A DNA stretch of 63,829 bases, counting the filler, from Lenisia limosa (lineage: Eukaryota > Protista > Breviatea), in NCBI GenBank assembly GCA_001655205.1. It is 16 parts of 16 records of this genome, joined end to end, with 100 filler letters (N's around TTAATTAATTAA, not from the genome) between each part and the next. Parts side by side here need not be neighbours in the genome. Positions count along the whole stretch, not along the records: positions 1 to 2,896 come from LPNZ01011058.1; positions 2,997 to 8,665 come from LPNZ01009127.1; positions 8,766 to 10,816 come from LPNZ01004580.1; positions 10,917 to 12,112 come from LPNZ01008540.1; positions 12,213 to 16,387 come from LPNZ01009256.1; positions 16,488 to 21,391 come from LPNZ01007613.1; positions 21,492 to 25,404 come from LPNZ01009702.1; positions 25,505 to 26,505 come from LPNZ01001625.1; 8 more parts are not named here. One strand, written 5' to 3'. The notes beneath the pieces were generated by a model. The model was not told the origin of the DNA, did not search any database, and was given only the letters and a program-made list of their open reading frames with translations. The position numbers and the translations under genes were made by a program. This document shows, piece by piece, positions 1 to 63,676 of the stretch (its first letter is position 1; each line of letters begins with the position of its first letter).

Positions 1-1266
1 AGTGACAGGAGCAGGAGATGCTGTTTTACAGTGTACCTCCGAAGGACTTCAAGGAGACGTCCTGACCTGTAATCCGCGTGGGTGGTGAATTAATACGGCT
101 TCGGGCACTATTTTAATTGAGTTATCAGCTAACAGAGTTAGTTGATTTTGGGCTTTTTTTTGTTTCATAAATTTCTAATTTTACCCCCCCCCCCCCNNNN
201 NNNNNNNNNNNNNNNNNNNNNNNNNNNNNNNNNNNNNNNNNNNNNNNNNNNNNNNNNNNNNNNNNNNNNNNNNNNNNNNNCCAGCTTGCCCAGCATCACA
301 ATATTTACTATTATTACTCCCTAGCTTGTGCGGCGCCACAAATGGCAGAAAACCTGGATACGTCCAACTGCCCATCTAAGGAATACCAACATGGTGAACA
401 GTGCCTTGTGGCCTGTCTTGATGGGTTGGTGGTGTACGGTGTGTATCAATACTACTCAGCATTCGCGGTAGGTTATCAATACTACTTGGGCTCCGTGCAA
501 TTAATTGAAAAATTATTTTCAAAATTTTGAAGTAGGACATATTGTAACGAGAACCCATTTCAGACAGTTATTATCTAATTTTGTCAATTACACGGAGCCC
601 TATTACTAACCTTTAATAAAGCAATAAGTGCCAATAGAAGCATAGGAAGAAAAGTCGAAACACCCAGAAGCTTTTCCAGTTCTTTAACAAGTTGTAAATA
701 ATGCTTATTTTGGTCAAATATGATACTACTAAAGACTGCATAACATGTACAGTGACCGGGATGTCTTGACCGATTTTTCTTGGAAATTCATATCAAATCG
801 GTCAAGACTTATCCCGGGCACTGTATGTAGTATAAAGGATTTTTTGGATTTGATTTTCACTGAAAAATCTTGATGAACACCCACTGGACCTGATAAACAC
901 TTGTTTGATGGATATTTTTTTTAAATATTTTCACTTCACCCCGTTTTATGTTGTTTTTGTTTTTTTCAGCATTTACATATATCTTCACTGTGGATGTATT
1001 GGGTCATTTCACACGAATTATTCTTGAATCATCTTACTAATTACTTGTACATATATATGTGTTAAATAAATATATATTTGGATCGGCAATAGCTTAATAT
1101 TTGACGGCAAAGAACATTCTAGAAGGGGAGGCATAGGATTTTCCCGAGAGTTTTGGGGGTTTCCATTTTTTTTACTCCCTGCACAGATACACGATCAAGT
1201 CAGGCTATGGTGAACTAGAGTGTACGGCAGGATCTTGGAGCAACTCCTTGCTCGTTTGTGAAAAAG
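1..1266 (+). CDS. Sushi/CCP-repeat protein, partial (exons <1-77, 325-424, 1187-1266)
   Basis: Phase-consistent GT-AG splicing gives VTGAGDAVLQCTSEGLQGDVLTCNP|PCAAPQMAENLDTSNCPSKEYQHGEQCLVACLDG|YTIKSGYGELECTAGSWSNSLLVCEK. The Cys spacing, C..GY and G.W...C match the CCP pattern; an extra Cys is present. Confidence 0.75.
750..823. mobile_element. Tc1/mariner-type MITE (family D)
   Basis: TA|CAGTGACCGGGAT..GTCTTGACCGATTT...AAATCGGTCAAGACTTATCCCGGGCACTG|TA; long TIR with TA flanks. Other copies at 15350-15427, 56408-56485, 48603-48666 (partial). Confidence 0.85.
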
Positions 1267-2442
1267 GTAAGGGTGGTATTCTCTTAATTTTGTTTGGAGA
1301 AACTCTGTGCTCGTTGTGGAAAATGGAGAATGAAAATGTAGTTTCTGAACAAGGTTTGATGAAGAGCACAGAGATTTCTTATTCACAATATTATGCTTAT
1401 TTCATACCTTTTATACCGTAAGGGTCCAACGACCTTCGTGTTGATAAACATCAAAGAGAAAAAGGCACTTGATTTGAAGGGATTGGTGTGGTTTTTTATG
1501 TTTCATAAAGTTATTGGGAGGAATAAATGGTGCTGTGTGAAAAAGATACTTGGATAGGCGTGACTTGGCAGGATATTTTCTAATATCAAGATATTTTGAG
1601 CCTTTTTGAAATCAAACAATTAAAAGAAGTATTAGAAACGCCTGTACCATTTTTCGGGAGATTCTATTTCACTCTCTACCCCAATCATTGATCGGAGTTT
1701 TCCATTTGCCTCACTCTCTATAGAGTCCTCCAACTCGGGCCTTTTTGGACTCAGTACTTTTCTGACCTTTGTACTAACTGCCGTTTTTGGTAAGTATCGT
1801 ACTAACTGCTGTTTTTGTAAGTACATGTATATCATAACAGATTGTTTTTTGAGTTAAGGGTAAATTTTCTATTTGGATGTGATGCGGGGCTGCAGAAGCG
1901 ACTGGCATGGGCTTTTTTTGTTTTGTTGTTATCAACCCTCGTGTAGTTTCAGCCAATAGTGTTGATTTTGAGCTTTTTTTNNNNNNNNNNNNNNNNNNNN
2001 NNNNNNNNNNNNNNNNNNNNNNNNNNNNNNNNNNNNNNNNNNNNNNNNNNNNNNNNNNNNNNNNNNNNNNNNNNNNNNNNNNNNNNNNNNNNNNNNNNNN
2101 NNNNNNNNNNNNNNNNNNNNNNNNNNNNNNNNNNNNNNNNNNNNNNNNNNNNNNNNNNNNNNNNNNNNNNNNNNNNNNNNNNNNNNNNNNNNNNNNNNNN
2201 NNNNNNNNNNNNNNNNCAGACACTTTAATTTCTAATTTTGTCAATTGATTTCCTCAAAACAATTAATTGCATGGAGCACTACTTTTCTATGATATCATAT
2301 GACTGTGTGTGTTAGAACCTACATATTTAGAATTAGGGCTTTACTTCTTATAAAAAAAAGACTAATTTACTCAATAAAGCGAAAATACCGATATTTTACT
2401 GGGTTTTATATACCAAAGTGAAGCTCTAGTTATATTGCGACA

Positions 2443-2557
2443 GGCCTGGGCTTTGTTGTTATCAACCCTCGTGTGTTGTCAGCCAACAAAGTTGATTCTG
2501 GGCTTTTTTTTTGTTCCATAAATTTTCTAATTTTACCCCCCCCCCCTTACACCACAG
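2443..2557 (+). repeat. Family A element ending at a probable acceptor
   Basis: GGCCTGGGCTTTG..ATCAACCCTCGTGTGTTGTCAGCCAACAAAGTTGATTCTGGGC-Tn-GTTCCATAAATTTTCTAATTTTAC-Cn-TTACACCACAG. Confidence 0.85.
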
Positions 2558-2996: not shown

Positions 2997-3011
2997 CCCC
3001 CCCCCCCCCAG

Positions 3012-8552
<5,541 letters not shown>

Positions 8553-11829: not shown

Positions 11830-12502
11830 GTGGGAGGCTAAGGGGAGCTGGTGGTTTCTTTTTTATGTCATCGCTTCATAATCTGGTAATGAAGAAAGAG
11901 AAAAACTCAATCATAACTCATAACCCCAGGATCTGTCAACCCATAATCTGATAATGACGAGAGATTTTGATGTAATACTAACATTATATCATCATATTAT
12001 GTCTTGTTCCCAAAACAGAGAAAACTCCCATCAGAACCCATCAGAACCCCGCAGGATCAGAGTTTTTTTTTTTTTTTTTTTAAGTATTATATATGCTGCT
12101 GCACGGAAACCGNNNNNNNNNNNNNNNNNNNNNNNNNNNNNNNNNNNNNNNNNNNNTTAATTAATTAANNNNNNNNNNNNNNNNNNNNNNNNNNNNNNNN
12201 NNNNNNNNNNNNCCCAGGCCAGTCGTTCCTGCAGCACCGAAATTGGAAAATTTATGAAAAAAGAAAAGCCCAAAATCGGGAGCACCCCTTACCCCTCCCC
12301 CCCTTGGCACTAACCTATCGCTCAAATTGAAGCGGCCCCTGAAGTTGTGAGAATAATAATAATACTGTTTTTGAATTCATAGACAAAGGAGAGAAATAAT
12401 TGGGAGGGGCAAGAGAGATATATATATAGTATACTGAATAAATATGTATAGTATATGCATATGATATCATCTGATAGTATTAGTATATATTAGTAATATT
12501 AC

Positions 12503-15500
12503 ATGAGTAATGGCCAATCTTTTCCTTGTCGGAGTGACACCATAATCATGACTCATCCGGAACGATTCGTCATCTCGGTCACTGTGGGTAATATGCTGAA
12601 TATTTGAGCTTCTCCATAAGATGGTAAATTATCGATATTTATCGAGGTTTCATCGAAAATGGTCTTTTTTGGAAACAAAAGTGCATTTCTACTTTGTGTG
12701 TTCATAAATCTTTATCTTCTTTGGATTTCCTAACGTAATTTCCACCATTCTTTTGAATTATCTCAAATTTTAGTTGATGATGTTATTACCGAAACCCTTG
12801 AACCCCAACTAATCGTCGCCGCAACCAATGAGTCATCGGGCTACGACGAAGATGATGCTCCTTTGCCCTCTCCTTCAATGTTGCATCTCAGTTTGAACTG
12901 GTATTCACTGATTACACTGAAAAGGGAAGCCACTGTCCTTGTCAGGATGACATCGACCTGGAGACCCGTGTCCTGCTGACTCGTCTACAGTAAACTGGCC
13001 GGGACCTGTGACCAAATGTGGTCTCCAATTAGGCCTTCACCACCGTCAGCGGTTGGAAAGACGCTGTGGACCTTGCAACGGTGGGTGGTTGTCTGTTATT
13101 CTGCTCGTCTCAGCGGGGCCATTTGCTGGCCACAAGGCCTGTCAAGATCAGCGATGTAATCATGACCAGGGCTGCTGCTTCACTTGCTCTTGATATAATA
13201 TGTTGCTAAACCCGTTCAGGCTATTGAGACAGTGGCAGAAATGGCAACTGAACTTTTTCAGGCTTCGCTTGTTTTGATATTTTTTTGCTGGTTCACATAC
13301 AAAAGTATCACGAGGTATGTGATACTCGAAATCTCTTCTGGGCTTGCCTCTTTCGGCGCGATTCCGCCTACTCTAAAAGCAACTCACTCTCCGACTACTA
13401 AAGTCTCACAAGAACAAACGCGGCAACTGTCCGAACACTCATCCTCTCATTCCCCCACACCTGGGGCTAAGTCGAAACAAGGTTCAATGATGATTTAATT
13501 CATTAAGAGTAATAATTTGATTTTGAGTTGTGACTTAGTGGAGCTCTTCGCTCGTTTAACTTCTTGTATCGGATGGTTGTGCTCAAAAAATCACCATCAC
13601 CGATGCTGAAGGGTTTTGACATAAACGCAATTAAGTAAAACATTGTTTTCTCCTAATTATTAGCTTAAAGCTGTCTTGAATAATCTGAACAGATTTCTAC
13701 TGTTCACGTTTCTACAAAGGATGCTGTAAGGATGGAAGTTTTCCGTCTTTTGAAGAATCCTCAACGCAAAATCCGAATTATCTTTGCATCTATTATTCTG
13801 GCAACCGTATGATCAACTTAAAATGCTATCATACAACACCTTGCATGTTTTCTTGCTTCAGCTGTCGGCGGAGGGATTGACTTGTAACACTCTAGGTTTA
13901 TGGGCTTTAGGACCTCTGCAACCAAACTCCTCCAGAGTACCTTTGTTATCATTTTTTGGGGTCATTTTCTCACCCAGGAAACGAACACTTAATCACTGAA
14001 CGAAACTCTCGCCTTTCAATCCAAAATACTAAAGTGCAAGAGAAAAGTGGTTGGAGGGTAAATATATAAATGATAAAAGAAAAGAAGAATCATAAAATGA
14101 GATCAGCCTTATTCGAAAGGAAATAATGGGATAAAAGGAATAAAATGAGAAACCACAACCAACCAGGCACTTCCTTTTAATTTCTAAACTTAATATCCCC
14201 CGGCCCACTCTTAATATCCCCCTGCCCACTCTTCCACATCAACGTCTTGAAGCGGGAGCTGAACAGTAAGTGGGAAAGGGGCAAGAGACTTCTATTGTCA
14301 TAACATGTTTACTTGTAATCAACTGCGTGTTGTCAGCCAACAAAGTTGATTTGGGCTTTTTTGCAAAATAAATTTCCCAATTTTACCCTTCAGGGTTTTG
14401 TTTCTTTTTTGTTTATTAATTCAAAAGTAGTGCTCTAATANNNNNNNNNNNNNNNNNNNNNNNNNNNNNNNNNNNNNNNNNNNNNNNNNNNNNNNNNNNN
14501 NNNNNNNNNNNNNNNNNNNNNNNNNNNNNNNNNNNNNNNNNNNNNNNNNNNNNNNNNNNNNNNNNNNNNNNNNNNNNNNNNGACCCCTCCCACCATGGAC
14601 TGTATTTCGTCGACAAGGGGGCGATACACGTCATCGTTTGGTAGTATCTGCGTCCTGGGCCGGATTAATAACCACAATGTCAAAAAAAGCAAAAATACAG
14701 AACCTTTATCTTATTTTTGTTTGAAAAAAAAAAATCAACTCGGAAACTGGAATTTATTCTATTTGTTCTGAAACAATCTTTGTNNNNNNNNNNNNNNNNN
14801 NNNNNNNNNNNNNNNNNNNNNNNNNNNNNNNNNNNNNNNNNNNNNNNNNNNNNNNNNNNNNNNNNNNNNNNNNNNNNNNNNNNNNNNNNNNNNNNNNNNN
14901 NNNNNNNNNNNNNNNNNNNNNNNNNNNNNNNNNNNNNNNNNNNNNNNNNNNNTTCTTCTCTGCCTCCAAATCCTCAGTCAGACCTGTTGGGTCGGTAAAT
15001 ATCATTATCATTTAGATCTAATATATATATCATATGTACATAGGTCTTTTTGATAACCGAAAAAAACGCTCGTGGTAAATAGAGCAAGGCTCTAAATAAA
15101 TACTCCATCCCAGAAACAGACTTGAAACTCTCTGGGCGATATGCCGACGGTAGAGGATCGGTTGTGAGTTCAAACTGCAACATGTAAAGAATGCAAATAA
15201 TGGTGATGTGGTGAGGGGTGGGGGTATGGGAAATGGGAATGTCAGAGTTTTATGCAGAACACAAAAATCTTTCTGCACTAGAGCTTCACTTTTGATAATT
15301 TACAGAGAACCGAGGTGACGCACACATAATATTAAATTCAGGACACATACAGTGACTGGGATAAGTCTTGACCGATTTTCCTTGGGAAACCACATTGCAA
15401 ATCGGTCAAGACTTATCCCGGTCACTGTATGCATGATATCATAAATATCATATATATAATACCAAGTCTCCCCAACAAGAGGCGTCGAGGGATGAAGACT

Positions 15501-16387
15501 AGGCCGAATGACAGGAGCAAGATCAGTAAGATCAGCCCGTAGGCGGTGCTGCAAGAAACAAAGAACCCGACAAGGTCATTTCTGGGGGGAGTGAAATTGG
15601 AAAATTTATGAAACAAAAGCCCAAAAATTATGTTGACATTACACAAGGGTTGAAAACAACTGAATAAACAGGCCAGTCGCTTCTGAACTAATACCCCTCC
15701 CAATAAACAGTTTGATGCCCTCCATCCCCCCCAACAGTTCAATGCCATTTGAGAGGCCGAGATAAGCCAAGAAAAGAACCATTATTCCACCTGGGGGGGG
15801 GGGGTAAATTGGANNNNNNNNNNNNNNNNNNNNNNNNNNNNNNNNNNNNNNNNNNNNNNNNNNNNNNNNNNNNNNNNNNNNNNNNNNNNNNNNNNNNNNN
15901 NNNNNNNNNNNNNNNNNNNNNNNNNNNAAACAAACAACGCCCAAGCCAGTCGCTTGGTCAAATCCTTGACGACATTGAATTGGTATTATTTCATCTTTTC
16001 TATGGATGATTTTCTTTGTATGGAGTCCTTAGTTTCAATAGAAACTTTACTGCAAAAAAGAGTCTCAATGATGAGCGGAGATAGCACCAGGGTAAACCCA
16101 GTGTGTATCATTGAGACTGTGGATGTGAGTTATCTTATCTACAGTAAAAAGAGTTGCATATAACCCCCGTCCAACCAACAATGCCAAAGTATGTAGAGGG
16201 AAATGAAAAAAATGATTTTATCTGGCCGAAGCCGTCTAAATCATTTGCCTTATAACACTGTGTGTACAGCTTTCTGCGAGCCTCCACAGCATACCGACAA
16301 TGCCATAGTACACGGAGTTTATTTTTAGGGCGTCCTGGAAGCGCTGTCCAGTAGTGAATTCTCCGCTAACAGCCATTGACTGTTGCA
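12503..16387 (-). CDS. LMBRD2: LMBR1-domain protein 2-like, partial (exons >16387-16295, 15790-15736, 15581-15477, 15174-15122/15104, 14983-<14953, 14654-14594, 14258-14230, 12581-12503)
   Basis: QQSMAVSGEFTTGQRFQDALKINSVYYGIVG; LNDLVGFFVSCSTAYGLILLILLLSFGLVFIPRRL; QILPNDDVYRPLVDEIQSM resemble remembered LMBRD2 motifs ([42 protein letters not shown]). Confidence 0.82.
12770..14000. pseudogene. Decayed coding-like insertion inside an LMBRD2 intron
   Basis: GC-richer tract lacking the usual intronic repeats, with broken 60-90 codon frames; no family recognised. Confidence 0.3.
15582..15690 (-). repeat. Family A element forming an LMBRD2 acceptor
   Basis: Minus strand ...CATAATTTTTGGGCTTTTGTTTCATAAATTTTCCAATTTCACTCCCCCCAG|AAATGACCTT; the exon frame continues the LMBRD2 similarity exactly from this AG. 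Confidence 0.9.
16205..16294 (-). repeat. Family C element starting at a donor site
   Basis: Intron begins GTATGCTGTGGAGGCTCGCAGAAAGCTG..TAAGGCAAATGATTTAGACGGCTTCGGCCAGATA. Other copies at ~11523-11600, 25505-25612, 33125-33175, 34327-34465, 46985-47092, 53590-53650, 54770-54815, 58905-58932, 61768-61795, 62822-62967. Confidence 0.85.
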
Positions 16388-16487
16388 NNNNNNNNNNNNN
16401 NNNNNNNNNNNNNNNNNNNNNNNNNNNNNNNTTAATTAATTAANNNNNNNNNNNNNNNNNNNNNNNNNNNNNNNNNNNNNNNNNNNN

Positions 16488-48300: not shown

Positions 48301-51300
48301 NNNNNNNNNNNNNNNNNNNNNNNNNNNNNNNNNNNNNNNNNNNNNNNNNNNNNNNNNNNNNNNNNNNNNNNNNATTAACCCCGGTCTTTATGTGCCCTGA
48401 GTTAATCCCAAATCGCAATAATTTCCCAGCAAACTTGGGGCATTGAGAGGGAACGGCTAAACGGAGATTTTGGGGTATGGGGGGTTCTGGGGGTATTCCT
48501 ACAAGGAAGTCAACGGACACTATTAGATAAAAATGATATGAAAAGGTTTTTTTTGTTCTATGTGTCTAAAAAAGGTGATATAATATAATATCATATAATA
48601 TACAGCGACCGGGAAAAGTCTTGACCTATTTTCCTTGAAAAATCTTCGTGCAAATCGGTCAACAGTATAAGTAATTAAATGATATCTACTTTTTACTTTA
48701 CACTCTACATTTATTGGGAAGCTATTTTATCTGGTCTGGTCCTTGTTATATTGCAACGGATATGGTGTCCATGCAATTCAGAATCAGAATTATTTCAAAT
48801 TGTATAAATGAACGCAGGGCTATATTGTAACTATTATGCCTGGAAGTACTATAAACCCATACAAATTGCGCTATGCAGTTTACTCCCCGTCTACAGAGCA
48901 GAAGAATGCTCAGGACTGAGCACGTTGAGAAGGTTGACGAAGGAGTTTTGTAGGGTGGATTGCACCTACAGAATCAGTTTTGTTCAATAGTTTGAATGGA
49001 ACACATTTGAATTTGAGAGAAAGACTCTGTATGAAGAATAGAAGAGAGAAATTACAAACAAATTCGAAGTCATGAACGAAAATAAGAAAGACTAAAACAA
49101 ACCTGCTTAAGTGACCTAAGCTTCTTTTCATCAACGTTGTACAATGCCGATTTGTTGGAGATGATGAAGGCCATTCGGGCGGTTAGGATTTTCTTACTGC
49201 ATTGCATGAGTGTTTGAAACTCTTTGAAAACAATTGGTAGATACTCAAATGCACCCCTGAATCGATATAATAGTCTACTTAGTATATATGTATGTGTTTG
49301 TATGTGTGTAATATATGTACCAAATATCGATAAATTCTTGATGTTTACAACAGGGGCTTTTCGGGCCAAAGTGAGCCTGTCGCAATTGCTTTGATCTTAG
49401 TGACTCCGTGCAATCAATTAAAACTATTCACACAGAGCACGAGATATTAGCCTCTTTGTTGCTACTTTGGATCAATATTTCTTAGTCCTTGATCCCACCT
49501 TTCCTCAATGAAATGAACCTCTGAGTTTTTCAGCTTTTCAATGAAAGGTGCGTCTGGAGGTGATCGCTCCGCTCTGAAACAGTAAACAGATCCAAAATTA
49601 TTTCAATTTTTGGAACAAGAATAAAATAATAACAAATACATGTTAAAGTTTCCAACGCTGTTCAAATAGATCCAGTATTATATCATATGCATAATTTTTA
49701 TCATAGTACATATAATATCATATATAAGACTATTATGATATTAAAATAAATCAAAATCTATTTAAATAATATTGAGTCACTTTTTTTTGACATTTGTTAA
49801 AAAACCCAAATGCTGAGCTTACAGAGACAGTGAAAAGGTTGATAAATATTCTGATAATCTTGCGTGTTCAAGGGACAAGTCATTGCAGCCAGACGAGTCT
49901 AAAAAGGGTCAAAGAAGCAAGGTAATTTGAATAATTAGGCCTTCCCTCAGGAACAAAAAAGATCGGTAAACTATCTAAATAGATGCAGGCATTTTATTAA
50001 TCAGAGTGAAACGTTCCTAGAAATAACTCAACTGAAACGAAGTCTAGTCCCTAAACAATCCTGATGGGTAAAATCCAATATTGACAATAGCATCACCCAC
50101 ACTGATAGTAATACTAACACTAAAATAGTAAATTTATCAATAGAAAGTGCAATATATCACACATAATTGCTCCGAAGAAGTCCTATTAGGGCTTCACTTC
50201 GGTTCGAAAAAAAGACTGAATTTCTCGATAAATCTTTGAAAATTATCGATATTTTACCGATTTTTTTGGAACCGAAGTGAAGCTTTAAGTCCTATTCTTA
50301 GATAATTAATCTGATATCCAAGACAACTTTCCCATTTGAAACCCTGCCTAAAACCTCCCACCACTCTCCACCAAGATTCTAACGAGAAGCAAGGACTGCG
50401 ACTGCGCTAATCTGGCCAATTCCTCAGCTGTATCGAGGACGTTCTGCTGATGCAACTCTGAGGCCTGGGGGGAGGGGGGGGAATTGGAAATTTATGAAAC
50501 AAATAAAAGCCCAAAATCAACTCTGTTGGCTGACTATAAACTGCCTACCTCATTCATGAGTTCCTTCGCAGCGGTTTTCAAAGTTCGAAGACACGCAGCC
50601 TGGGATGACAGGCATTTTGCTCCGGAAAAGGTCGTGACATCATGACGACATGACTAAGAGGGAGTAAAATTGGAAAAGCGGGGGAAGATTAATCCCCCCC
50701 CCCTCCCGCGAAAATCAATTCCGTTGGCTAAACATTTGCGAAACATGATATATTTTTTTTTGACAAGAGAAATACTATTCATTAGAAATCTAGAAAAACA
50801 AATTAATGGGCCCATAATTTAGGGGATAACTTTAGGGGATATGAAATTAATCATATAAAGAAAAATAAATAGAGAAAATGGTGGGGGNNNNNNNNNNNNN
50901 NNNNNNNNNNNNNNNNNNNNNNNNNNNNNNNNNNNNNNNNNNNNNNNNNNNNNNNNNNNNNNNNNNNNNNNNNNNNNNNNNNCGATGTAAGAGGAAACGA
51001 CCAACGCGATAAAATAGTGGACGGGGAGGTGGGGAGTAAGATTGGACAATTTATGAAATAAAACCCCCCCCAAATCAACTCTTTGTGGTGGTGGTGGAGG
51101 GGGGACGATATTCAGTTACCAGGACTCACATCAGCTCCGACAGCGGAATTGCTCAGTAACTCCGCAATCCAATCAACATCATTCTTTTCAATCGTCACCG
51201 CGTCCATCTGTAACGTTATTATGAAATGGGCGCTAGACAGAGTAATGTGTAGACTTCACTATTGTACGAGGAAATGAATTGATAGAATTAGAAACCGAAT

Positions 51301-54300
51301 GACATGTCCCACTTCAAATTTTAAAATTATTATTATTTCCCCTAGATTTTCAATGGATCTTGTTTTTTTGTTCAAAAAATAAAAGGCGAAATGTGAGTAG
51401 ATTTGCTGGCACTGAGTCAACGAAAGTGCAAGTTTTGTTGTAGTACAATCTCGATTGAAACTAAGATCACAAAGATTCGGCGGTTGAACTGTCCAATGAT
51501 GATCTTATAATGGGTTGCAGAAGAATAGGGTTTTTAGGGAAATATGCTGTAAAAGATATGTTGTTCTTGGGTTATATACATGTAGTATGTATTTTTTTTT
51601 TTAAAAAATGGGTTTAAGAGTTGTACTTTTTGGGATTTGTATATTTTGATCTTGTACTCTTTTCGGACCGGAGAGAAGTCCTACTTACAATTAGGGCTTC
51701 ACTTCGGTTCGAAAAATACCGAAAAATATCGATAGTTTAAGAGGATTTATTGAGAAATTCAGTCTTTTTTCGAACCGAAGTGAAGCCCTACTTACAATGG
51801 AATTGATTCGGTTTGAAATGAGCGACAAGTGAGTCTGAATTTCACCAACAAGAACGCCGGCACTGTCTTGACCTGAGGGAGGGGAGTCAGATGAGGAAAA
51901 TTATGAAACAAAAAAAAACACAAAATCAACTCTGTTGGCTGACANNNNNNNNNNNNNNNNNNNNNNNNNNNNNNNNNNNNNNNNNNNNNNNNNNNNNNNN
52001 NNACAAAATATGAAATAAGGAGGTTGTATCAGAAATGGTAAACGAAAGTACAGAACTATTCCCAAGGTATGAAGGTGAAAAGGATGTTCCGCCTTCTCTT
52101 GAGTAGGGGTTCACTTCGGTTAAAAAAAAAACTGAATTTCTCGACAAATCTTCGAACCCTATCGATAATTTACCGTTATGTTTCGAACCGAAGTGAAGCT
52201 TGAACTGCACAGAAAGTTGTTTCGTATTATTTAATTTAGCTATTCGTGATGGGTGAAGACGGCTTTGTCCAGATTCCACCAATTTTATTTCGCACCCGTA
52301 ACAGCCTACCAGTAAGCCGAGTTGACAGCATGTTGGCGGTGAAACGGCAAGAAGCCTCCAGTTTTGATAGGGTCGGGCCAAATGGAATGTACGTCGTACC
52401 CCCAAGTTCAATTACCTAGGGGGAGGGGGAGTAAATCGAAGGAGATTTCGATGACAAATACTGGCGTATGTAATAATCACGAAATCATCAAAAACTCCAA
52501 AATAATAATAAAAAACAACTTAGGGAGAGGGAGAGTGAAACATGGGAATATTATGGAAACAAAATAAGCAGAATAAAGTATGCTGGCCTAACGAAATCCT
52601 CTACTCACTTTTTGAAGGGACGTGGACAAATTCTCAGTGACACCTGAAAGGATGTTGCTGGCTGTTGTTGGAACTTCACCGTTGGTGCACACTTCGGATA
52701 ATTTAGCAAGCCACGTATCTAGACGTGTTACAAATGACTGAATTCTAGATAAAACCTCTAAAATTATCAGTTTTTTTGGTACCGAAGTGAAGCCCTGAAT
52801 ACTGTGATGTTTTCGTAGAAAAATGGAACTTATAAACGAAGGTCGGAAATATCCCAAGACGATGAGCAGTTTTGTAACATACAGGCTTCCCTGCGGTCCG
52901 AAAAAACCATCAAAGTATCGATATCTACCGAAGATTTATCGAAAAATTCGGTCTTATTTGGGACTGAAGGGAAGACCTACTCACCAGTGTCCGCAAGGAG
53001 CTGTTTGAACACTGTTTTTGGCAAAACCGCATCATCTCTTGAGGCCTTGAAAGGTCAAATAGTCAAATGCTGTAATACTAGAGAGCAAGAAGTATTCAAA
53101 TAAGGGATCCAAGACAAAAAACGTAATACCACCACGAATTTGAGTGGTAGGATTGTATTTTTTTTTATCACCGAAAGGAAATACACTCCTTTCACAACAA
53201 CATAAATGTAACTCCGGATTATATCGAGACATATGTATAATAAGTCTGCAATTCTAGAGCCGAAGTATTGTGAAAATAAAAGAAAAACAAAGAAACGTTT
53301 AGTTTTTTATGCAGTAAAATCTATTGAACCTTGGTTCAAAACAAAGGCCCACCTTTTTGAAGATGGTATTCCACATTTCAGACCCGTTGGCTATAGTGGA
53401 CAGCGCCGCCTCCACTGAAAGGTCAGAAACCGATCCCAATTTAGTTTTTCATGTTAAATGTATCATATTTTCCTTTGTTTGAACGTTTATTTGTTCAAAA
53501 AAAAAAAAAAAATTTTGAAATAAATTTTAAAGTTGAAATAACTAAAGAGTAAACAATCGTCTTTGACAAGATATCACAAAGATGAGAAATAAAACAAGTC
53601 TCTGGCCGGAGTCATCCACACCATCACGCTTATAAGAGATATTGGATCACCACCATATGCAAAATAAAGGAAACAATATTCTTTTGAGTACATTTGACAG
53701 GATGAACATCTAGAAGATGCGAAAATATGTAAAAACTAGATATTATACCGATATTTTTCGAACCGGAGGGGGAAGCCTTATCACAAACAAATATTTGAGG
53801 ATACCAAGTAGGGCTTCACTCCTGTCTCAAATAGACCGGTAAAATATCGATAGTTTTCGAGGATTTATCTAGAGCTCAGTCTTTTTTCGAACCGAAGTGA
53901 AGCCCTATTAAGAGGAAAATAACACAATATCCAATTCCACGAACGTGAAGACACAACACTCCAAGTTTACATTGAATATCGTCAAATTATTAACCTCTAT
54001 CCAGTTCTACCATCAGCCTCCCTATTTTCTTTTTCTCAGAGAACCCAGCTTACATTGAATATCGTCAACTTCACATTTGGAAATCAGGCCTTCCACGACC
54101 TCCATCCAGTCATTATCTACAGTATGATTGGTGAACCATCTCGATACTCAAAAACAATAATCAAGATGCTCAAAAACAATAAATCATTCTAAGAGCCGTT
54201 TGTTCCAGCAACGAACCATATGTATAGCAATGAGAAATATTAATTCACCCAATCATTTGCCTTACAATTCTACCATAATAAGACCATAGTGATATTTCAA

Positions 54301-54423: not shown

Positions 54424-54680
54424 CTGAGAGGTGATAAAAAATAGAGGCGGAGGCGATAGTAAAATTGGAAAAAATGTTACAAAAAAAAAGCCCAAAATCA
54501 ACTCTGTTGGGGGGTGGGGTTTCCCCAAAACTCCTCGATAAATCTTGATACTTAAAAACTCCTCGATAAATCTTCGACAANNNNNNNNNNNNNNNNNNNN
54601 NNNNNNNNNNNNNNNNNNNNNNNNTTAATTAATTAANNNNNNNNNNNNNNNNNNNNNNNNNNNNNNNNNNNNNNNNNNNN

Positions 54681-57600
54681 GGGCAGGAAACCTCTTTCCA
54701 CAGTGCCGGATGTTCGCATATCCTTCGTGTCTCTAACATGCGCTGGAAAAGTCACCCAAATAACAAAGAAGTATCTCGCTGAAGCCGTCCACATCATCAC
54801 ATTTATTGAGGAATTATATATTGACTATAAGGCTCACTTCGGTTCAAAAAAAGAAGACTGAATTTCTTGATAAATCCACGAAAACTATCGATATTTTCCT
54901 GGTCTTTTTCGAACCGAAGTGAAGCTCTAATTGACTATCGTACAATAGGATAATATATCGAGTTGAAAGCAGAACAAAATACCAACATTTTTCTTTTGCG
55001 AAGATACTGCGCCTTCGGCCCTTACGCGCGTCTATACAAGGTGAGGAATCAGGTTGCCATAGACAAAACTAGCGACATATTCTCGATAAAAATCGTTATT
55101 CAAACATGAATGATGATAATAAAAATAATGTCAGCACACATTCTGACAAAAACAATAAACACAGAATAACAATGGAAGAAGAGAGACGGGGGGGGGGGGG
55201 CTTNNNNNNNNNNNNNNNNNNNNNNNNNNNNNNNNNNNNNNNNNNNNNNNNNNNNNNNNNNNNNNNNNNNNNNNNTCTTACGGGCCTTCCAGAATGTTTG
55301 CACCACCTTGGTGAGTGAAAATGGAAATGTGATGAAAAATAGAGAAACCAAAATGCCACCGTTTTGTTAGATGATCCAAAAGTTCTCCCTTCCACCACCA
55401 CAATAAAGTCCTAAAGTCTGTATTGCCCCTACCTGGGCAGCATATGATTGGACAACTGTGAATTGGGGGGCCTTGTCCAGTGTCTTGAGGGAGGCGAAGG
55501 GGCGGGGGAATTTCTTTGATAAGGACTCTTGTAATCGTGGTGCAGAGCTGAGCGGTTAAAGGCGAATATTGTTCTTTTGGAATGGTGGAGAAAAACGAAA
55601 ATTATTATGAGACTTTATCTCTATGATCCTAGTTTCAATTGAGACTGAACGGTCAAGCCACTTTACTGCAAAATAGCAAATTTCTTTGCGTCACTTCCCC
55701 CCCTCCCCCACTCTACACCAGTCGCGTGCTGTACTAGCGCCAAAAGAAGCTCGAAAAAGTGGACACTATCGCCCATAGGGGTGATGTGAATGGGGACTGT
55801 TAGCTCCTCTAAGCATCGCAGAACACTCACTCCAAACCTCTTGGGACCTGGAAGAGGTCAGTGTGTGTGTGTGTGTGAGTGTAAGTGAGCAAGTGAGTAT
55901 GTGAGAGTTGTGTTGGGGGGCGGGCGGATGTGTTGTGTGTGAGTGGGGTGGTGTCATTGTGTATTTGGGTCTGTGAGTGGGGTGAGAAAAAAGAAAATAC
56001 ATATCAGAGAAACTCGCTCTTCAAAAAACAAAAAAACCACCAAGGCCAAGCATACCAAGGCCAAGCGGAGGATCCAATTCATGGAGGAAGGAGGAGAGTT
56101 GGGTCTAGATAAGTAAGTGAAGTTCAAAGATAACGTCAGACAGTTGCAGAAGCAAGGTAATTTGTTTATGGTATCCCTATGTATTTAATTATTTCCTATT
56201 TCTAATGTATATTATTTCTATTGCCCAAAAAAAGGGGGTGTTCATTTTTAGAGAACATTTGGTTCGGTTGTTTTGGAAAAAGCTAAATAGAATGTAAAAT
56301 ATAATCCTTGGAATATATATGATTTGTTTTTTTTAAAAAAGACAGCTGGATATTCAAAAAGGAGTGAAAGCAATGGTTTCATGATTGTTTTATCAAAGAA
56401 ATATGTACAGTGACCTGGATAAGTCTTGACCGATTTGCTATATAATTTCTCAAGGAAAATCGGTCAAGACTTATCTCGGCCACTGTATATCGATGAAGGA
56501 AGCCGTCATGCGAAATAACAGTCTTTCCCCCTGGTTTCTACTGGACCACAGTGAAGACCTATCAGTCCCTTTAATGGGCAAGGAAGTAGGGTAATTTATT
56601 GGCATCCCTATGTATTTATTTGTTTCCTGACATTTCTGCTCAAAAAACCCCCTTACAGCGGGGATAAAGTGGGAGGCTCGAGGATCGTAGTAGGCCCAGA
56701 GCAAAGTGAAGAGCGATAGATGATGGGTGGATAGAATGTCATCGCGCTCGGTCGAGTTGAATTGGCTAATGATGACTGCAATGAGAATGTTCAGCATGAT
56801 GAAGGACCTGAGGAAGGGGTGTCAAGGTGGGCGACAAGGAGCGTGGGCGCGGAGGTATGGTAATTTGTTCATGGTGTCCCTATGTATTTATTTCTCATGT
56901 ATATTATTTCTCTTGTTCAAAACAGATAAGCCTTGGGATGAATGAATGTTTAAGTTATCTCCTTGAAACAAACAAATCGACATAACTACTAGGGCTTCAC
57001 CATGGTTCAAAAAAAGACTGAATTTCTCGATAAATCCTCGAAAACTATCGATATTTTCGTTTTTTGAACCAAAGTGAACCCTCATAATTGCTCCCCACCC
57101 CCCCTACCCGACAACGATGAACGTGAGGAAGTAGACAGGAGCCCATGGGTAGTCCTCCCATGTCTCGTGCATGATACCGTTCCAGTCCTCTCCCGTTGAT
57201 ATTCTGAAAAATTAAAAGGCTTTTTTTAATCTTTATTGTTCTGTTAACAGAAAAAACAATACAACAATGGTGGCTCTTTAAACGTATGTACTTGCAAAAA
57301 CTAGTCTTTTATTTTTAAATTTGTTCATAAAAATACCACTTTTACCACTTTTTATTAACTACAGCCACTGCCACTCCCTTTTGAGATGAGCCAAAAATAT
57401 ACACTGACGTCCTGTCACGAAGGACTAAAGATAAAGCTCAATATACTTATCGCGGTCAGTGTATTCATAATTTTGACTCAAAGGTTGTCCATTTGACCAT
57501 ATCATCAGGAGTGGGAATAGTACATCAGCGTCTGGCTGAATGACAACAAAACATTTAACTAACAAAACCAAACACTACCAATACCGAGTAAAAATAACAA

Positions 57601-58184: not shown

Positions 58185-59937
58185 CAGACGAAGTGAACAT
58201 AACATCAGGCTTGTCGTCTAGCTCGACAGGGGCTGATAAGTAGGGTGCAAGTTTGCTTTGTTTGTTGGAAGAGATCACCATTTCTAGGTGGGGTAAATAT
58301 GGAAAATGTAAAAGAAAAAGAAGGGCCTAAAATCAACTCTGTTGGCTGACAACACACGAGGGATAACAACAACAAAACAAACAAAGCCCAGGAGAGTCGT
58401 TTCTTCAGCACAGCATCCCATCACTCCAGCGTAAGTAATTTTAAACAGGGGGGCTTCGCTTATCGATAGTTTTCCGATCATTTTCGAACCGAAGTGAAGC
58501 CCTACCAATACCCCACCTTTCCACGGCCCAAGACCGCTATGCAGGTCTAAGAATGCAGAGGACTTTGGATGCACACTTTCAATCTCTCTCCCCAGGATCT
58601 TCAAATCTGTTTGTGGTTAATTGAGAAATTATATAGAATGTATTACACGTATATATACATAGTATTACATGTACTATGTATATAGGTAATTATATATGAT
58701 ATGATACGATATGATATACATATGATATAGGATATGTGTATGCGTAGTGATAGACAAAGCAAGGGGTATTTGCTTATTGCTAGTTTGCAATTACCCAGGA
58801 CTTTTAGATCTGTTAACGATTTAAGAATTGCAAATATAATATAAAGCTACATATAATATGCATATCAAGATATTATATCATATCATATGAATAAAAAAAT
58901 AAGATTGTATCTGGCCGAAGCCGTCCCCACCANNNNNNNNNNNNNNNNNNNNNNNNNNNNNNNNNNNNNNNNNNNNNNNNNNNNNNNNNNNNNNNNNNNN
59001 NNNNNNNNNNNNNNNNNNNNNNNNNGCAGACTGCCTAAAAGAAATGATACGCCTTCAAGAATCGCTCATAAAATTCCTGTAAAATACAAAATGCAAGAGT
59101 AGTAAATGTGAACAAAGCCTTATCAATAACTACCCAAAATATTATCAATAAATTATGTTTATTGCAAATTATCAAAACACAAGCCCTCAAAAAGTAATAA
59201 ATAAACAAAACAAAAAAACAGAAGGAAAGTAAGTCAAATCACCTGTTTGACGGCGACGTAACCAAGGCTAATCGTGTAAAACACACACTTCATCATGAAT
59301 AGCAGCGGCCTGAAAAACGGAATCCATGATTCTGGCGGGGGCGGGNNNNNNNNNNNNNNNNNNNNNNNNNNNNNNNNNNNNNNNNNNNNNNNNNNNNNNN
59401 NNNNNNNNNNNNNNNNNNNNNNNNNNNNNNNNNNNNNNNNNNNNNNNNNNNNNNNNNNNNNNNNNNNNNNNNNNNNAAAATAAAAAATTAGAGAGTAAAA
59501 TTGAAATCTCTTGATATGTAGAGATAAGAAATAAGAAAAGGGGAAAATTGGCTGAAGCTGTCTAAACTTTCCCCTTTAGTGGATAGGGCTTCACGTCGGT
59601 TCAAAAAAGACCGCATATCTCGATAAATCCTCGAAAACTATCAATACTTCTACTTCAACCGAAGTGAAGCCCTATTAGTAGGGCTTCGGAGTGAAAGTAT
59701 TATATGTATGTAGAAATGAGAAATCAAAATAGGTGATATCACCTTTAAGAGGGCTTAGGTCCGAAAAAGAAAGGTAAAATAGTGATAATCATTGACGATT
59801 TCTCGAGAAATTTATTGTGACCGCTTTTCGTCACAACCCCCAATACCCACTTTTCCCTGTTAACGTCCTTCATTACTTCGAACGCTCCCTCCTCGAAAAG
59901 TGCGTTTCGGTTAAGGTCTACATCCTCCTTGGAGCAC
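58185..59937 (-). CDS. Unidentified multi-exon gene fragment
   Basis: Exons read CSKEDVDLNRNALFEEGAFEVMKDVNRE; PLLFMMKCVFYTISLGYVAVKQ; LKILGREIESVHPKSSAFLDLHSGLGPWK|EMVISSNKQSKLAPYLSAPVELDDKPDVMFTSS. Confidence 0.55.
58284..58427 (-). repeat. Near full-length family A element from GGAGTGATGGG to the acceptor AG
   Basis: Minus strand GGAGTGATGGGATGCTGTGCTGAAGAAACGACTCTCCTGGGCTTTGTTTG..CCCTCGTGTGTTGTCAGCCAACAGAGTTGATTTTAGG..CATTTTCCATATTTACCCCACCTAG|exon. Confidence 0.88.
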
Positions 59938-60530
59938 CTGAGGTTGTAAGGGGGTGGGGGGGGGGGGGATAAAATTGGAAAATTTATGAAACATTAAAGC
60001 CGAAATCAACTCTGTTGGCTGATAACACACGAGGGTTGATATTAATAAAACAAATAAAGCGTACTATCGTGCTTTATCGAAATTTGTCGATAACTATCGG
60101 CAAGACATCACAACTTTATCGATTCATCGGTAAAGTACACGAAATTATCAATAGTTTAAAGATATTTCTCGAAAAAAGATGACAATCATCGGTTTTTATC
60201 AGTAAAGTTTCCGCAAACCCACCGTCTCAGCCAGTCCATAGGGGGGTTGAACCCACCGTCTCATCCCNNNNNNNNNNNNNNNNNNNNNNNNNNNNNNNNN
60301 NNNNNNNNNNNTTAATTAATTAANNNNNNNNNNNNNNNNNNNNNNNNNNNNNNNNNNNNNNNNNNNNAACACACAAGGGTTGTCAACAACAAAACAAAAC
60401 AAAGCCCGGGCCAGTCGCTTTTGCAGCACCGCACGCAATTTATAAAACAAACACCCGAATCAACATTATAAAGTCTACGACAGGCGAATCAACATTATAA
60501 AGCTACGACAGGCGGATAGACTGTCCCCAC

Positions 60531-62476
60531 CTGTTGGGTGCTTCTGAGATCATGGCTTCGACCTGAATGCGTGTTAAAATTGTTGTAAATGCTTGATAAA
60601 ATGTTGCAAACCAGATAAGGGTGTTATAATTGTTTTAGACAAGACAGTACAGGAAAATTGAGGGATATATACGTATGTACAGTATTACAGTCTACACATC
60701 CAATTGTTATAAGTTACCTGAATAATCCACCATCACGTTTTGTTCCAGAATAATTTCGAGTCAAGTTCTTTTGAATGTTGTGGTTTGAATACTGTGTTTT
60801 GTGTATTTCAATACACCCCCCCACGTATTCCCAGGGCAGCGACTTGCCTTGGAGTGCATAATGCGGTAACAGCACCATGCTACTCAGGAAGATCAGCGGG
60901 CCTGCCGTGTGGAATACCGGGTCTGTGGGGGTGAGAGAAATATAGGTAATATAAAATATATCCATATTGATCAAGAGTCATTGGGATGAGAGAACGGAGC
61001 TGAGGGTCTTAAAAGAATGTAAATATATGCACAAAGACAGCGATAAGTCCTAACGAGAAAGCTCAATATCCGTGTAATGATATGGTTATAATCATGCTCA
61101 GTTGCAAAGTGTTATGTCACCTTTGAAAGCGATGGCCATGTTGTCAACAAGTTCAAGGTAGCTGTTACTGAACGTCATTCTAAAAGGGTCATAAACAGGT
61201 ATTTCATTCTCAAAGGGTCATAAACAGGTATTTCATTCTCAAAGGGTCATAAACGTAGAGGTGTCTTCAAAATGGAACGAGGACAGATGTTTAATTCATA
61301 TGTCATTTCATTATTATCAATATTGGTATGAGGCTTAACCGATCAAATCAGCATTTTTTGGGATCGTGGGGTGTCTTGACCGATTTGAAGGTCAAGAATT
61401 ACCACTGTCACTGTTGTACAATCCGGCATGGCAGCTGATGAGAAGACCAGTGGGTTGGCTCTTTTAAATACATCTGTAGTTGCAAAAATTAACCTTTTAT
61501 TTTTTAATTTTGACCACTTTTAACTCTTTTTATTTTTAAACTACAGACGCTGCCACCCCCTTGAGATGAACCCAACAAGTGGCCACTATCGGCACCTTGT
61601 TCTTTGTTTCTTGTGTACATAAAAAAGCCCCACGAACACAGTAGGAGGGAGGGCCGTAACATAGTAGTTGAGGTAATGCATGAGACCACTTTCTGCAAAA
61701 GATCAAGGCAATAAAGCAGGATACGATGTTTTGCAATGTTCATAGAGATGAGAAATAAAACAAGGAGGTATTTGGCCCAAGCCGTCCGCATCATCTGCGC
61801 CGTGATAGAGATTCGACAAGGCTTACCTCTAGCACTGATTTTAACACACTGGAAGAGCTTTCGCGATTCCTTGGGGAGTAAAAATGAACAATTTAATCAA
61901 GCAGAATCATCTCTATTGGTTTGATATTTGCGAAATATAGTGTGTCCTTTGACCCACATCAGGTCCCTTGAGCCACCAAGCTGAACACATGGCAAGATAG
62001 AACTCTGAGGACACCCTGGCTTCGGGTAACATCTGCCCGCCTAATCGCGCGTAAATGCGGTGACCCGCCTAGGAGGGGGAGTAAAACGAAGGAAATTTCG
62101 ATGAAGAATATTGGTATAAAGGTACTAATCACGTACCGAATAATCTGAAACTCCAACAAAAAAACAATAAAAAAACAAGCAATAACAAACATGAGCTGCC
62201 AACTGGGGGGGGGGTAAAATTCTAACATTACCGAAACAAAGAGAGTCCACATCAACTCTGTTGGGTAGCAACACACTAGGGTCAAACAAAGCCCAGGCCA
62301 GTAACTTCTGCAGCACCGCATCCCATCACTCCATCGTGCAGTAAAACGAAGGAGCTACGTGTCATCCCCACCTTAGCTACATAGGCTACATGCCTTCCCC
62401 ACCTTAGCGAGCTGCAGAGCAAGGCTGTACTCATGGCGATACAAACAGAACGTTGCCACTTGGGAGAGACATGAAA
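60531..62476 (-). CDS. Unidentified helical (TPR-like) protein fragment, 6 exons
   Basis: Phase-consistent SCLSQVATFCLYRHEYSLALQLAK|AGHRIYARLGGQML..WWLKGPD|KVVSCITS..LLLCS|MTFSNSYLELVDNMAIAFK|DPVFHTAGPLIF..LPWEY|VEAMISEAPNR. Confidence 0.6.
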
Positions 62477-62703
62477 CTGCAAATACCCCTGACCTGAATT
62501 CGTAAGAAAAGGGATAAAATTGGAAAATTTAAGAAAGACAACATGAGGTGGGGGGGGGGGGGNNNNNNNNNNNNNNNNNNNNNNNNNNNNNNNNNNNNNN
62601 NNNNNNTTAATTAATTAANNNNNNNNNNNNNNNNNNNNNNNNNNNNNNNNNNNNNNNNNNNNAAAAAAAAAAAAAAAAAAAAGTCAAAGACACAACATCC
62701 CAC

Positions 62704-63676
62704 CTTCGGGCTTTGAGCAGGTTTTGTGATTCGCTGGTTGATCTAGTGGGGAGTAAAGTTGGAAAATTTATGGAACAAAAAAAAGCTCAAAATCAACTCT
62801 GTACATATTATACTATATGATACAATATAGCAATGAGAAAATAAGTCGTATCTGGCCGAAGCCTTCCACACCATCACGCTTATCAGAGATATTGGATTAT
62901 AGTCTACTATTAATTCACCCAATCATTTGCCTAACAGCACACAGCTTCCTGCGTGCCCCCCAGCATACGATATTACATCATATACCCCTTTACTTTGGGT
63001 GAGAAGCTGCAGTCCTCCATTTCCTTCTTGAGCTTTGAGAGCCGCGCCATACTAAGTCGACTGTCGGCGTCCCTCTNNNNNNNNNNNNNNNNNNNNNNNN
63101 NNNNNNNNNNNNNNNNNNNNNNNNNNNNNNNNNNNNNNNNNNNNNNNNNNNNNNNNNNNNNNNNNNNNNNNNNNNNNNNNNNNNNNNNNNNNNNNNNNGA
63201 TGAGGCACGCACAAACACAAATACCCCCTTAAACACACGCAAATACCCCCTTAAACACACACAAATACCCTACATCAGTTCCACCCTTACTAACTCACAT
63301 AAACACACTGACAAACAACAACCCCTCAATAATAATCTCATACCTGTCTCTGTAGCATCAACTCCACGCGGTCTTGCTCGCTGATAGTGGGGTTTCGAGC
63401 GCACATCAGAGCCGTGGATTTTGATTCGTACTAGGGAGTGAGGTAAGATAATACAATATGAGACCTGGGGGTAAAAAAACAAAGGAAAAGGAAAATTTGA
63501 GAAAGTAAGGATTTCTATTTGTACACCACCACACACTTCAATAGCATCAGTTATTAACCCCCCCCCCCTTCTACCAGTTTACTCCTCCTGTTCATCAAGG
63601 TGTCAGGCTTTGGGGGGTGTGATGTCTCCATGACCTTCTGCACGTGACTCGACATTCGCTCCTGATGCTCTTCTCG
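62704..63676 (-). CDS. Unidentified charged protein fragment with a CxFxPxIN motif
   Basis: REEHQERMSSHVQKV..RRSKL|YESKSTALMCARNPTISEQDRVELMLQRQ; RLSKLKKEMEDCSFSPK|INQRITKP. Confidence 0.55.

Follow-up and report, generated by a model that had tools for sequence, protein, structure and literature searches.

A 146-bp repeat at intron 3' ends of Lenisia limosa that likely lands in pre-existing introns

The window analyzed here, a stretch of 63,829 nucleotides of Lenisia limosa, consists of 16 scaffolds joined by spacers, and many ends of the repeat described below, family A, fall into N gaps. Pfam supported the identification of TOR, V-ATPase a, LMBR1, BING4CT/WDR46, IFT70 and RAD50 as host genes. 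The genes named in the original prediction (TOR, RAD50, IFT70, LMBRD2, WDR46, and V-ATPase) were recovered, except for DUF11, for which Pfam searches of single exons gave no confirmation, and TOR corresponded to positions 2997-8665 rather than to scaffold 1 (1-2896). LMBRD2 similarity did resume at an acceptor AG as claimed, the LMBR1 Pfam match running from residue 8 of window:15452-15598, one residue past the AG; a search for LMBR1 orthologues gave nothing at E<=1 and PDB was likewise empty. In TOR trees, the organism formed a long branch without placement.

Family A is non-coding and present as 44 copies or fragments in the window (Table 1; profile matches at >=6 bits), close to the roughly 40 previously proposed, versus a mean of 0.6 matches expected by chance from 10 local shuffles. 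The 146-position profile gave 36 matches at E<=0.01 in the window, the 16-nt core of the repeat had 20 matches versus 0.05 by chance, and weak matches were also numerous (53 at >=2 bits versus 6.8 expected). Contig depth across family A was 12,786 versus about 30-45, which suggests very many copies, depth not being itself a copy number. The exact 26-nt core had no match among metagenome contigs, a result that says little on relatives. The repeat occupied 4 of the 19 TOR introns and 7 of the 15 introns of the gene on scaffold 6, a scaffold without read support. Local tandem duplications are common here (17659/17607).

Table 1. Copies and fragments of family A along the window.
Feature	Position	Strand	Context
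A fragment (model 75-146)	118..192	+	C-run enters N gap; weak host model
A copy with head (9-113)	1876..1980	+	End in gap
A copy (31-145)	2437..2543	+	Then second branch motif and AG 2557
A copy with head, internal deletion	3630..3718	+	TOR intron, donor 3493; 3' end at gap
A head	6393..6459	+	TOR intron, donor 6330; position common to L070
Degenerate A 3' half, 7.8 bits	6827..6918	+	14 nt upstream of TOR acceptor 6932
Stack: weak 3' remnant, then A copy (10-127)	8182..8370	+	TOR intron, donor 8018
Head-to-tail junction, A 3' part directly then A head	12213..12277	-	Scaffold end
Antisense A copy	14306..14389	+	Intron of minus-strand LMBR1-family gene
A copy, 2 nt from acceptor 15582	15582..15691	-	Intron 15735-15582; LMBR1 match begins there
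A copy over N gap	15791..15957	-	3' end = acceptor 15791
A copy, then decayed 3' remnant	16585..16731	-	Short intron 16721-16585 nearly all A-derived
Weak remnant and A fragment stack	16791..16934	-	End 15 nt from AG 16791
Stack: family E, remnant, two A 3' fragments	17554..17773	-	AG 17554
A 3' fragment	19026..19086	-	In 83-nt intron 19108-19026
A fragment	19883..19977	-	End 5 nt from AG 19883
A fragment	20277..20340	-	End 2 nt from AG 20277
Antisense A copy	21024..21133	+	C-tail exactly = G-run of donor 21134
Weak A fragment	21704..21742	+	IFT70 intron
Weak A fragment	22847..22895	+	40 nt upstream of IFT70 acceptor 22935
Degenerate A 3' part	25199..25262	-	WDR46 acceptor 25199
Stack: remnant, then A copy (23-144)	25825..25991	-	AG 25825
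Antisense A 3' fragment	34674..34719	-	G-rich start, RAD50 intron 34598-35295
A copy over N gap	35117..35295	+	3' end = RAD50 acceptor 35295
Weak A 3' part	37544..37593	+	Acceptor 37597
Degenerate A 3' part	40429..40485	-	V-ATPase a acceptor 40429; protein alignment gap-free there
Two A 3' fragments stacked	40835..40928	-	V-ATPase intron 41051-40686; AG ~150 nt away
A fragment	42506..42588	-	3' end cut by family B element
A copy over gap	43962..44069	-	Intron 44100-43762; RNA junction at AG ~200 nt beyond
Complete A copy	45146..45295	-	Starts 5 nt past donor 45300, ends in AG; candidate whole intron
A 3' half	50465..50541	-	Fills 84-nt intron 50548-50465
A 3' part	50654..50731	-	End 5 nt from AG 50654
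A 3' fragment	51031..51082	-	No AG within 48 nt up to next gap
A 3' part	51873..51945	-	End 7 nt from AG 51873
Stack: weak A remnant, then family E	52416..52587	-	Family E ends at AG 52416
A 3' part	54456..54510	-	32 nt from AG 54424; second branch motif between
Weak A 3' part	55308..55359	-	AG 55308
Complete A copy	58284..58429	-	Head 88 nt from donor 58516; ends at AG 58284
A copy running into C-run	59962..60060	-	24 nt from AG 59938; second branch motif between
A head	60368..60439	-	Scaffold end
Stack: complete A copy with own AG, then family E	62069..62334	-	Family E gives acceptor 62069
A 3' fragment	62743..62802	-	End 5 nt from AG 62743

The orientation of the repeat had been said to follow that of the host gene; this held for 41 matches, whereas three (14306-14389, 21024-21133, and 34674-34719) were antisense. 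Orientation alone is weak evidence, because the matches of another repeat, family D, were also sense (13 of 13) without any link of their 3' ends to acceptors.

The 3' ends of 19 of the 41 sense matches, candidate acceptor 45146 included, lay at most 15 nt from a curated acceptor AG, and a further two reached acceptors across N gaps (15791 and 35295), so that the more than 20 copies announced within ~15 nt of an AG amount to 19 directly, plus these two. The 15 coordinates originally put forward were all AG ends and 11 lay 2-15 nt from a profile match; that at 35295 follows a family A 3' end over the gap, as judged by eye, whereas 16585 (51 nt), 54424 (32 nt), and 59938 (24 nt) are farther from the match. 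In an element-blind test, 12 of 19 measurable family A 3' ends were at most 20 nt from an exon start, versus 15% of random places (p=2e-6), and the same test gave 0/16 for family B, 0/4 for family C, and 0/10 for family D. A second family, E, likewise ends at acceptors. The last bases of family A match the branch-plus-C-tract signal of the genome; a branch-like YYNAC was recovered 6-18 nt before the end in 14 of 19 introns bearing the repeat and, for introns devoid of it, in 20 of 29, at a distance of 5-14 nt, a few intron boundaries in this set being off by 1-8 nt.

TOR and V-ATPase proteins align without gain or loss over the A-bearing acceptors, and this protein continuity supports the use of the acceptors supplied by the repeat. 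RNA contigs, compared with scaffold 12 only (12,275 of the 63,829 bases), yielded two junctions, none via an A-supplied AG and one skipping the AG of an A copy; with RNA reaching just 11 of 30 bins, absent junctions are no evidence here. Family A likely serves as the branch point at intron 3' ends, and our observations agree with the suggestion that it targets, or was co-opted as, branch point and pyrimidine tract.

Most copies were 5'-truncated, with heads kept in 9 of the 44 matches and cover, only 4-8 copies deep over the head, climbing to 36 copies over positions 91-120. This truncation, together with a shared 3' end and a C-run tail, is as in SINEs and non-LTR elements, although Rfam detected no tRNA-, 7SL- or 5S-derived Pol III head in family A. 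Among 76 open frames taken from long stretches outside exons, Pfam detected neither a reverse transcriptase nor a transposase, and no partner LINE sharing the family A 3' end was present within the window. The target-site duplications that the original prediction proposed to look for were absent from the flanks of all three complete copies, including those of variable-length SINE type, although a duplicated C-run could be hidden. The bodies of complete copies were uninterrupted, and truncated copies were as near the consensus as full ones (identity often 87-100% for short fragments and 77-96% for long copies). Stacks of 3' ends, some with family E among them, were observed at 8182, 12277, 16934, 17773, 25991, 40928, 52587, and 62334, the best copy not always being the last (16731 and 40928).

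The ends of family A are imperfect 7-nt inverted repeats (GGAGTGA and TTACTCC) that pair in the fold of one copy, and family E shows similar GGAGT and ACTCC motifs. These features recall a small MITE-like DNA transposon with wide insertion, selection retaining copies that lie sense at acceptors, with the terminal repeat as branch point there, and deletions eroding the 5' part. The abundance of the MITE families B and C in the same introns, and the sense bias common to family D, which suggests strand-specific selection, also agree with such an origin. We nevertheless consider it unlikely: about four fifths of the matches are without head, yet no more decayed, high-identity copies being headless where young MITEs should keep both ends; no target duplication was observed; families B, C, and D have no 3' ends at acceptors; and antisense copies, giving no new acceptor tract, are rare. 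Among 27 family A 3' ends, the motif was ACTCC in 7 and ACCCC in 9, being constrained by the splice signal.

Spread by ectopic gene conversion that starts from the branch and C-tract common to intron 3' ends, with variable tracts and no transposition of its own, would account for the sense orientation, the fixed 3' end, the variable 5' end and the absent duplications, as well as for the continuum of faint copies at >=2 bits. However, conversion replaces and does not add, so that stacks, the fixed 5' terminus in nine copies and antisense copies need another cause, which makes this scenario improbable. We give very little credence to the idea that family A is a functional small RNA of snoRNA or snRNA type, encoded in introns, multiplied by retroposition and retained close to acceptors for the sake of its processing. 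The sense bias would agree with it, as would short box C-like and Sm-site-like motifs visible in family A, but Rfam gave no gathering-level match in the window (two copies had chance-level matches only), the fold was no more stable than those of shuffles (z -0.7 to 1.1) and the head is missing in most copies. Neither a known-family match nor a conserved structure supported such an RNA origin. A Helitron, for which a GC hairpin before a CTRR end and insertion between A and T would be expected, was not supported either, the 3' 30 nt being unpaired or weakly paired in folds and the first exon base after the AG being variable.

Of the nine intact heads of family A, one lay near a donor and the other eight were 52-609 nt away, and in 17 of 18 introns truncated copies left no head close to the donor. 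The repeat came within 12 nt of a donor in three introns only, each time at another element position, and has no consensus donor itself, whereas 21 copies reached the intron end. An acceptor-like flank preceded 5 of 8 heads versus 21% of random places (p=0.013; criterion chosen after looking). The A-bearing TOR intron 2183/0 is common to an unrelated eukaryote (metagenome locus L070). This comparison was based on the best 80 of 228 metagenome loci, chosen as unbroken over positions 2198-2243, a span holding the A-bearing 2209/0; with no close relative among them, 1 of 3 A-bearing TOR positions was shared versus 2 of 14 for the other TOR introns, 12 of the 14 being unshared. For V-ATPase, 0 of 2 A-bearing positions were shared in read-through proteins, again with no close relative in the comparison. 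A human MTOR exon boundary that we presume to lie at the codon of intron 2209/0 obtained no support from the literature and was not counted.

The far heads, the absence of target duplication, truncation without decay and the shared TOR position do not support, for most copies, the initial proposal of intron creation by family A followed by burial under other insertions. One copy, 45295-45146, may be an entire intron, which leaves room for intron creation: it starts 5 nt past a consensus donor and ends in AG, and a stop-free path via that AG exists, but the direct path skipping it is also stop-free and the path through it requires a GAG acceptor. One may imagine an introner with its own acceptor and a donor borrowed from the target, which made introns before later insertions or deletions split off or removed its head. 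In introns 50548-50465 and 16721-16585, similarity to family A extends up to 7-12 nt from the donor, introners carrying just the 3' site are known (PMC9860276) and fungal introners lose length as they decay (PMC3609843). Four of the five A-bearing positions tested (2 TOR and 2 V-ATPase) were seen nowhere else, but unshared positions were equally common for introns without family A, and one A position was shared. With the remote heads, the lack of head remnants and duplications, and the absence of a stable fold, we regard this introner scenario as quite unlikely; family A likely lands in pre-existing introns rather than creating them.

The copy number in the window, orientation, acceptor position, 5' truncation with shared 3' end, stacks and intact proteins are directly seen, and we tentatively favor as their explanation a non-autonomous element, likely RNA-copied, that inserts at the C-tract of existing acceptors, replaces the branch signal and leaves stacked old 3' ends. 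Family A RNA, probably out of excised introns, would pair via its C-tail with the G-rich strand of the host C-tract, and reverse transcription from that C-tract primer would often stop early, giving 5'-truncated copies. An insert at an acceptor would bring along its own new branch motif, 6-18 nt from the AG, shifting the older signal upstream, and would be harmless because of this replacement; rare insertions at donor G-runs would produce antisense copies.

Acceptor proximity, the signal shared with introns lacking family A and truncation without decay argue for insertion at existing acceptors, as do the antisense copy 21024-21133 on a donor G-run, the TOR position 2183/0 in L070 and the absence of target duplication; the far heads, acceptor-like flanks and stacks argue more specifically for existing introns. 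Several points weigh against it. In the 29 introns without family A, G-runs at donors and C-runs at acceptors are equally common (11 and 12 introns), so that C-tract priming does not by itself account for 41:3, and selection or AG pairing is needed; family D is entirely sense without acceptor ends. The imperfect inverted ends suit a DNA transposon, and retro-insertions usually leave target duplications, none of which was seen at family A. Stacks can be local tandem duplications, their order is inconsistent, and parallel gain at a G|G site may explain the shared TOR position. The RNA junction skipping an A copy's AG, the lack of a junction through an A-supplied AG and the absence of reverse transcriptase or transposase in the 76 frames also count against it. 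The broader proposal that families A and E are "half-introners", mobilized through RNA, which settle at 3' splice sites already present and replace, one insertion after another, the branch point and C-tract in a large share of the introns of a genome, mobile DNA setting and renewing the acceptor consensus with intron positions unmoved, is possible but rather doubtful.

Word matching in the open-access literature retrieved no report of a repeat supplying acceptors to existing introns. Introner screens require similarity at both intron ends (PMC9860276), so that an acceptor-only renewing element would escape them. Such a takeover of splice signals by mobile DNA would be unusual. If family A inserts at existing acceptors, it would offer a testable route for genome-wide rewriting of the splice-signal consensus, and, for mobile DNA, a safe-harbor strategy in genomes dense in genes and introns. 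Should it instead be a decayed introner, it would still be a candidate source of the very high intron density of this genome.

SINE-like retroposons such as Alu resemble family A in their high copy number, non-autonomy, 5' truncation, common 3' end and simple tail, and in the ability to donate splice signals. Unlike them, family A has a C-tail instead of an A-tail, no detected tRNA/7SL/5S head, and internal T-runs; unlike Alu-supplied pyrimidine tracts, it is used in sense rather than antisense, at constitutive acceptors and not for new exons. MITEs resemble family A in size, copy number and intronic habitat, but the MITE families B and C have long palindromes, keep both ends and show no acceptor link, whereas the imperfect ends of family A measure 7 nt and most of its copies keep one end only. 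Acceptor-only introners are similarly short, non-coding and sense, with acceptor signals only and short inverted ends; in contrast to them, most family A copies have no similarity reaching the donor, target duplications are absent, at least one intron position is shared and stacks occur at one acceptor. The introner-like elements of fungi and the TIR- and TSD-free IE of Micromonas (PMC3609843; PMC10996645) are whole introns with donor, branch, acceptor and stable fold, whereas family A has no consensus donor and a fold no better than those of shuffles. Like family A, these elements lack TSD, are shorter than 200 nt and gene-associated, and decay to ordinary-looking intron ends, an RNA route having been proposed for them as well.

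The iterated 146-position profile of the dispersed repeat family A had 44 matches at ≥6 bits in the window (58,586 non-N letters on 16 scaffolds of an intron-dense eukaryote, with spacers between them), versus 0.6 in ten local shuffles, and weaker matches extended below this cut-off (53 versus 6.8 at 2 bits). The depth of a DNA run reached 12,786 in a bin over one A copy versus about 30-45 in unique bins, a sign of very high copy number, although depth is not equal to a count. Family A starts with a G-rich head, followed by a T-rich middle, a conserved core and a T-run, and closes with a tail composed of a branch-like motif and a C-run. It matched no Rfam family, and eight copies folded no better than shuffles; that A is a small RNA seems very improbable.

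Homology supported as host genes TOR, a UCH protease, an ankyrin gene, an LMBR1-family gene, an ion channel, WDR46/BING4CT, V-ATPase a, IFT70 and RAD50. The DUF11 host of the original prediction was not confirmed on check, and scaffold 1 proved not to be TOR. In TOR trees the organism formed a long branch without placement. Exons are mostly 50-130 nt long, with the donor pattern GT(G/A)(G)G, and the C-terminal part of TOR has a very high intron density (19 per ~560 codons). A fragment with 16 exons probably encodes a surface protein; its single exons had no Pfam match. Three long stretches without called exons, whose open frames are broken, also had no Pfam match and are possibly decayed mobile elements. 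Tandem duplications containing splice sites were observed as well, among them a TOR acceptor (~4x) and a RAD50 donor (~5x).

Host genes, repeat families and other features of the window
Feature	Positions	Strand or orientation	Description
TOR	2997-8665		homology-supported host gene, C-terminal part
Gene fragment	16488-21391	(-)	16 exons; Thr/Val/Asp-rich, repeated motifs
Stretches without called exons	26606-32892, 12340-14200, 35420-37330		long, open frames broken
Tandem duplications	4092-4280, 34079-34210, 62345-62402, 7080-7150		contain splice sites
Antisense A copies (n=3)	14306, 21024, 34674	opposite to host gene	
Family E	17690-17773, 52422-52513, 62072-62170	(-)	sense repeat, ~100 nt
Family E	21789-21822	(+)	sense repeat, ~100 nt
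Family D	13 matches within 11522-62953	13/13 sense	~125 nt
Family B	~30 copies within 2335-59819		intronic; 98-nt palindromic MITE, TAGGG-type ends
Family C	748-825, 9583-9652, 15348-15429, 19665-19717, 48601-48664, 56406-56487, 61373-61414		82-nt palindromic MITE, TA flanks; presumably Tc1/mariner-like

Host strands were taken from homology, from RNA or from a parser blind to A, that of scaffold 1 being based on a weak parse. The originally noted agreement of A with the direction of its host gene held for 41 of the 44 matches and broke down for three antisense copies. Family D is in sense in all 13 matches, so this orientation is not special to A. In the antisense copy 21024, the C-tail coincides with the G-run of donor 21134, which belongs to an 11-exon chain that is stop-free over 319 residues.

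The original observation of a dispersed repeat at intron 3' ends was largely right. Nineteen of the 41 sense matches end at most 15 nt from a curated acceptor, and two more across N gaps; the remaining ones run into gaps or scaffold ends, lie upstream in stacks (successive element 3' ends before one acceptor) or end 24-200 nt before the acceptor. Because circularity had to be avoided, exon starts were also called without A, with YAG, the coding score and the presence of a downstream donor as the sole criteria. With this procedure 12 of the 19 measurable A ends (out of 31, the other 12 meeting a gap or no call) fell within 20 nt of an exon start, versus 15% for random places. None of the 30 ends of families B, C and D did so.

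Exon chains passing through A-adjacent acceptors are stop-free. As originally noted, protein similarity resumes at an A-supplied AG: the LMBR1 match begins at 15582, the strongest homology support for a strong A copy. The TOR acceptor 6932 was recovered by a spliced aligner, and a gap-free alignment of V-ATPase with the comparison protein P0261, 108 residues long, spans acceptor 40429; the A copies at these two sites are degenerate (7.8 and 9.5 bits, respectively). RNA contigs of scaffold 12 exhibited two GT-AG junctions, neither using an A-supplied AG, and one of them (44101 -> 43761) skips past an A copy whose tail lies ~200 nt upstream. The A tail is this genome's ordinary acceptor signal: of 29 non-A introns, 20 have the same branch-like motif at a distance of 5-14 nt from the intron end.

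The accessible text of PMC9860276 defines introners by similarity reaching both intron boundaries. Family A contains no consensus donor, and eight of its nine intact-head copies begin 52-609 nt from the donor. The introner label is unproven for A, and unlikely for most copies. The head of the ninth, 45295, lies 5 nt from the donor; for this copy the reading path is stop-free both via its AG and when that AG is skipped. In 17 of 18 introns no head remnant was detected between the donor and the breakpoint of truncated copies, and these diverge from the consensus no more than long copies do. Direct repeats, which target-site duplications as considered in the original prediction would leave, flanked none of the three complete copies. 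We regard A being an introner as rather improbable.

For TOR, 61 of 80 metagenome loci (the best 80 of 228) could be aligned, the other 19 having no room for an intron; for two A-bearing positions, whose acceptors fall in gaps, the assignment was made manually from the donor. Most window positions were not seen in these loci, and three of the 17 testable ones are shared (permutation p ~0.01, preferred sites not being modelled). One of these three is the A-bearing intron with donor 6330, which has its position in common with locus L070, where a 47-nt GT-AG intron is found. Loci L010, L013 and L031 each carry an intron at 2181/0, and the A-bearing window intron at 2183/0 is two codons away. Read-through proteins (6/10 TOR fragments and 11/22 short V-ATPase proteins), judged from the point where similarity breaks, point to an old age of two non-A positions. 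The two V-ATPase positions that bear A were not found in such proteins. In these small numbers, A introns do not appear demonstrably younger than others.

Several introns carry stacks in which A and family E occur in either order. Family E, like A, has a branch motif with a C-run at its 3' end, which lies at the acceptors in two cases (52416 and 62069); short GGAGT/ACTCC motifs are common to both families. Family D, with a GC stem and a TTCG loop, is located 37-835 nt upstream of acceptors and has no sequence similarity to A; a family B element interrupts the A copy at 42506. Five of eight intact A heads follow an acceptor-like flank (a weak, post hoc observation), and in DNA contigs an A head lies immediately behind the T-run of another A copy. 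From the one-ended copies with a common tail, the sense bias, the stacks and the copy fused to a donor G-run, we tentatively infer that A insertion could be primed by pairing of the element C-tail with G/C tracts, the template being most simply RNA, a scheme to which we give slightly less than an even chance. Against such priming, donor G-runs are as frequent as acceptor C-runs, and neither a duplication nor an enzyme was found. Some stacks could also come from local tandem duplication; a spread of A by gene conversion seems rather improbable. The ends of A, moreover, form a short inverted repeat, which also speaks against priming; that A is a MITE filtered by selection is unlikely.

In the open-access literature, supplements aside, we found no repeat described as providing the acceptor signal for large numbers of introns that already exist. 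A survey of introner mechanisms (PMC12130899) defines introners, in its accessible part, by exon insertion and contains there no case of acceptor replacement. Whole-intron elements lacking a TSD appear in the available portions of PMC3609843 and PMC10996645, as does the proposal of a reverse-splicing route; the available portion of 10.1101/051292 gives only a general both-ends test. Although family A departs from introners and from SINEs in defining features of each, it resembles 3'-site-carrying introners in what it supplies and SINEs in its truncation.
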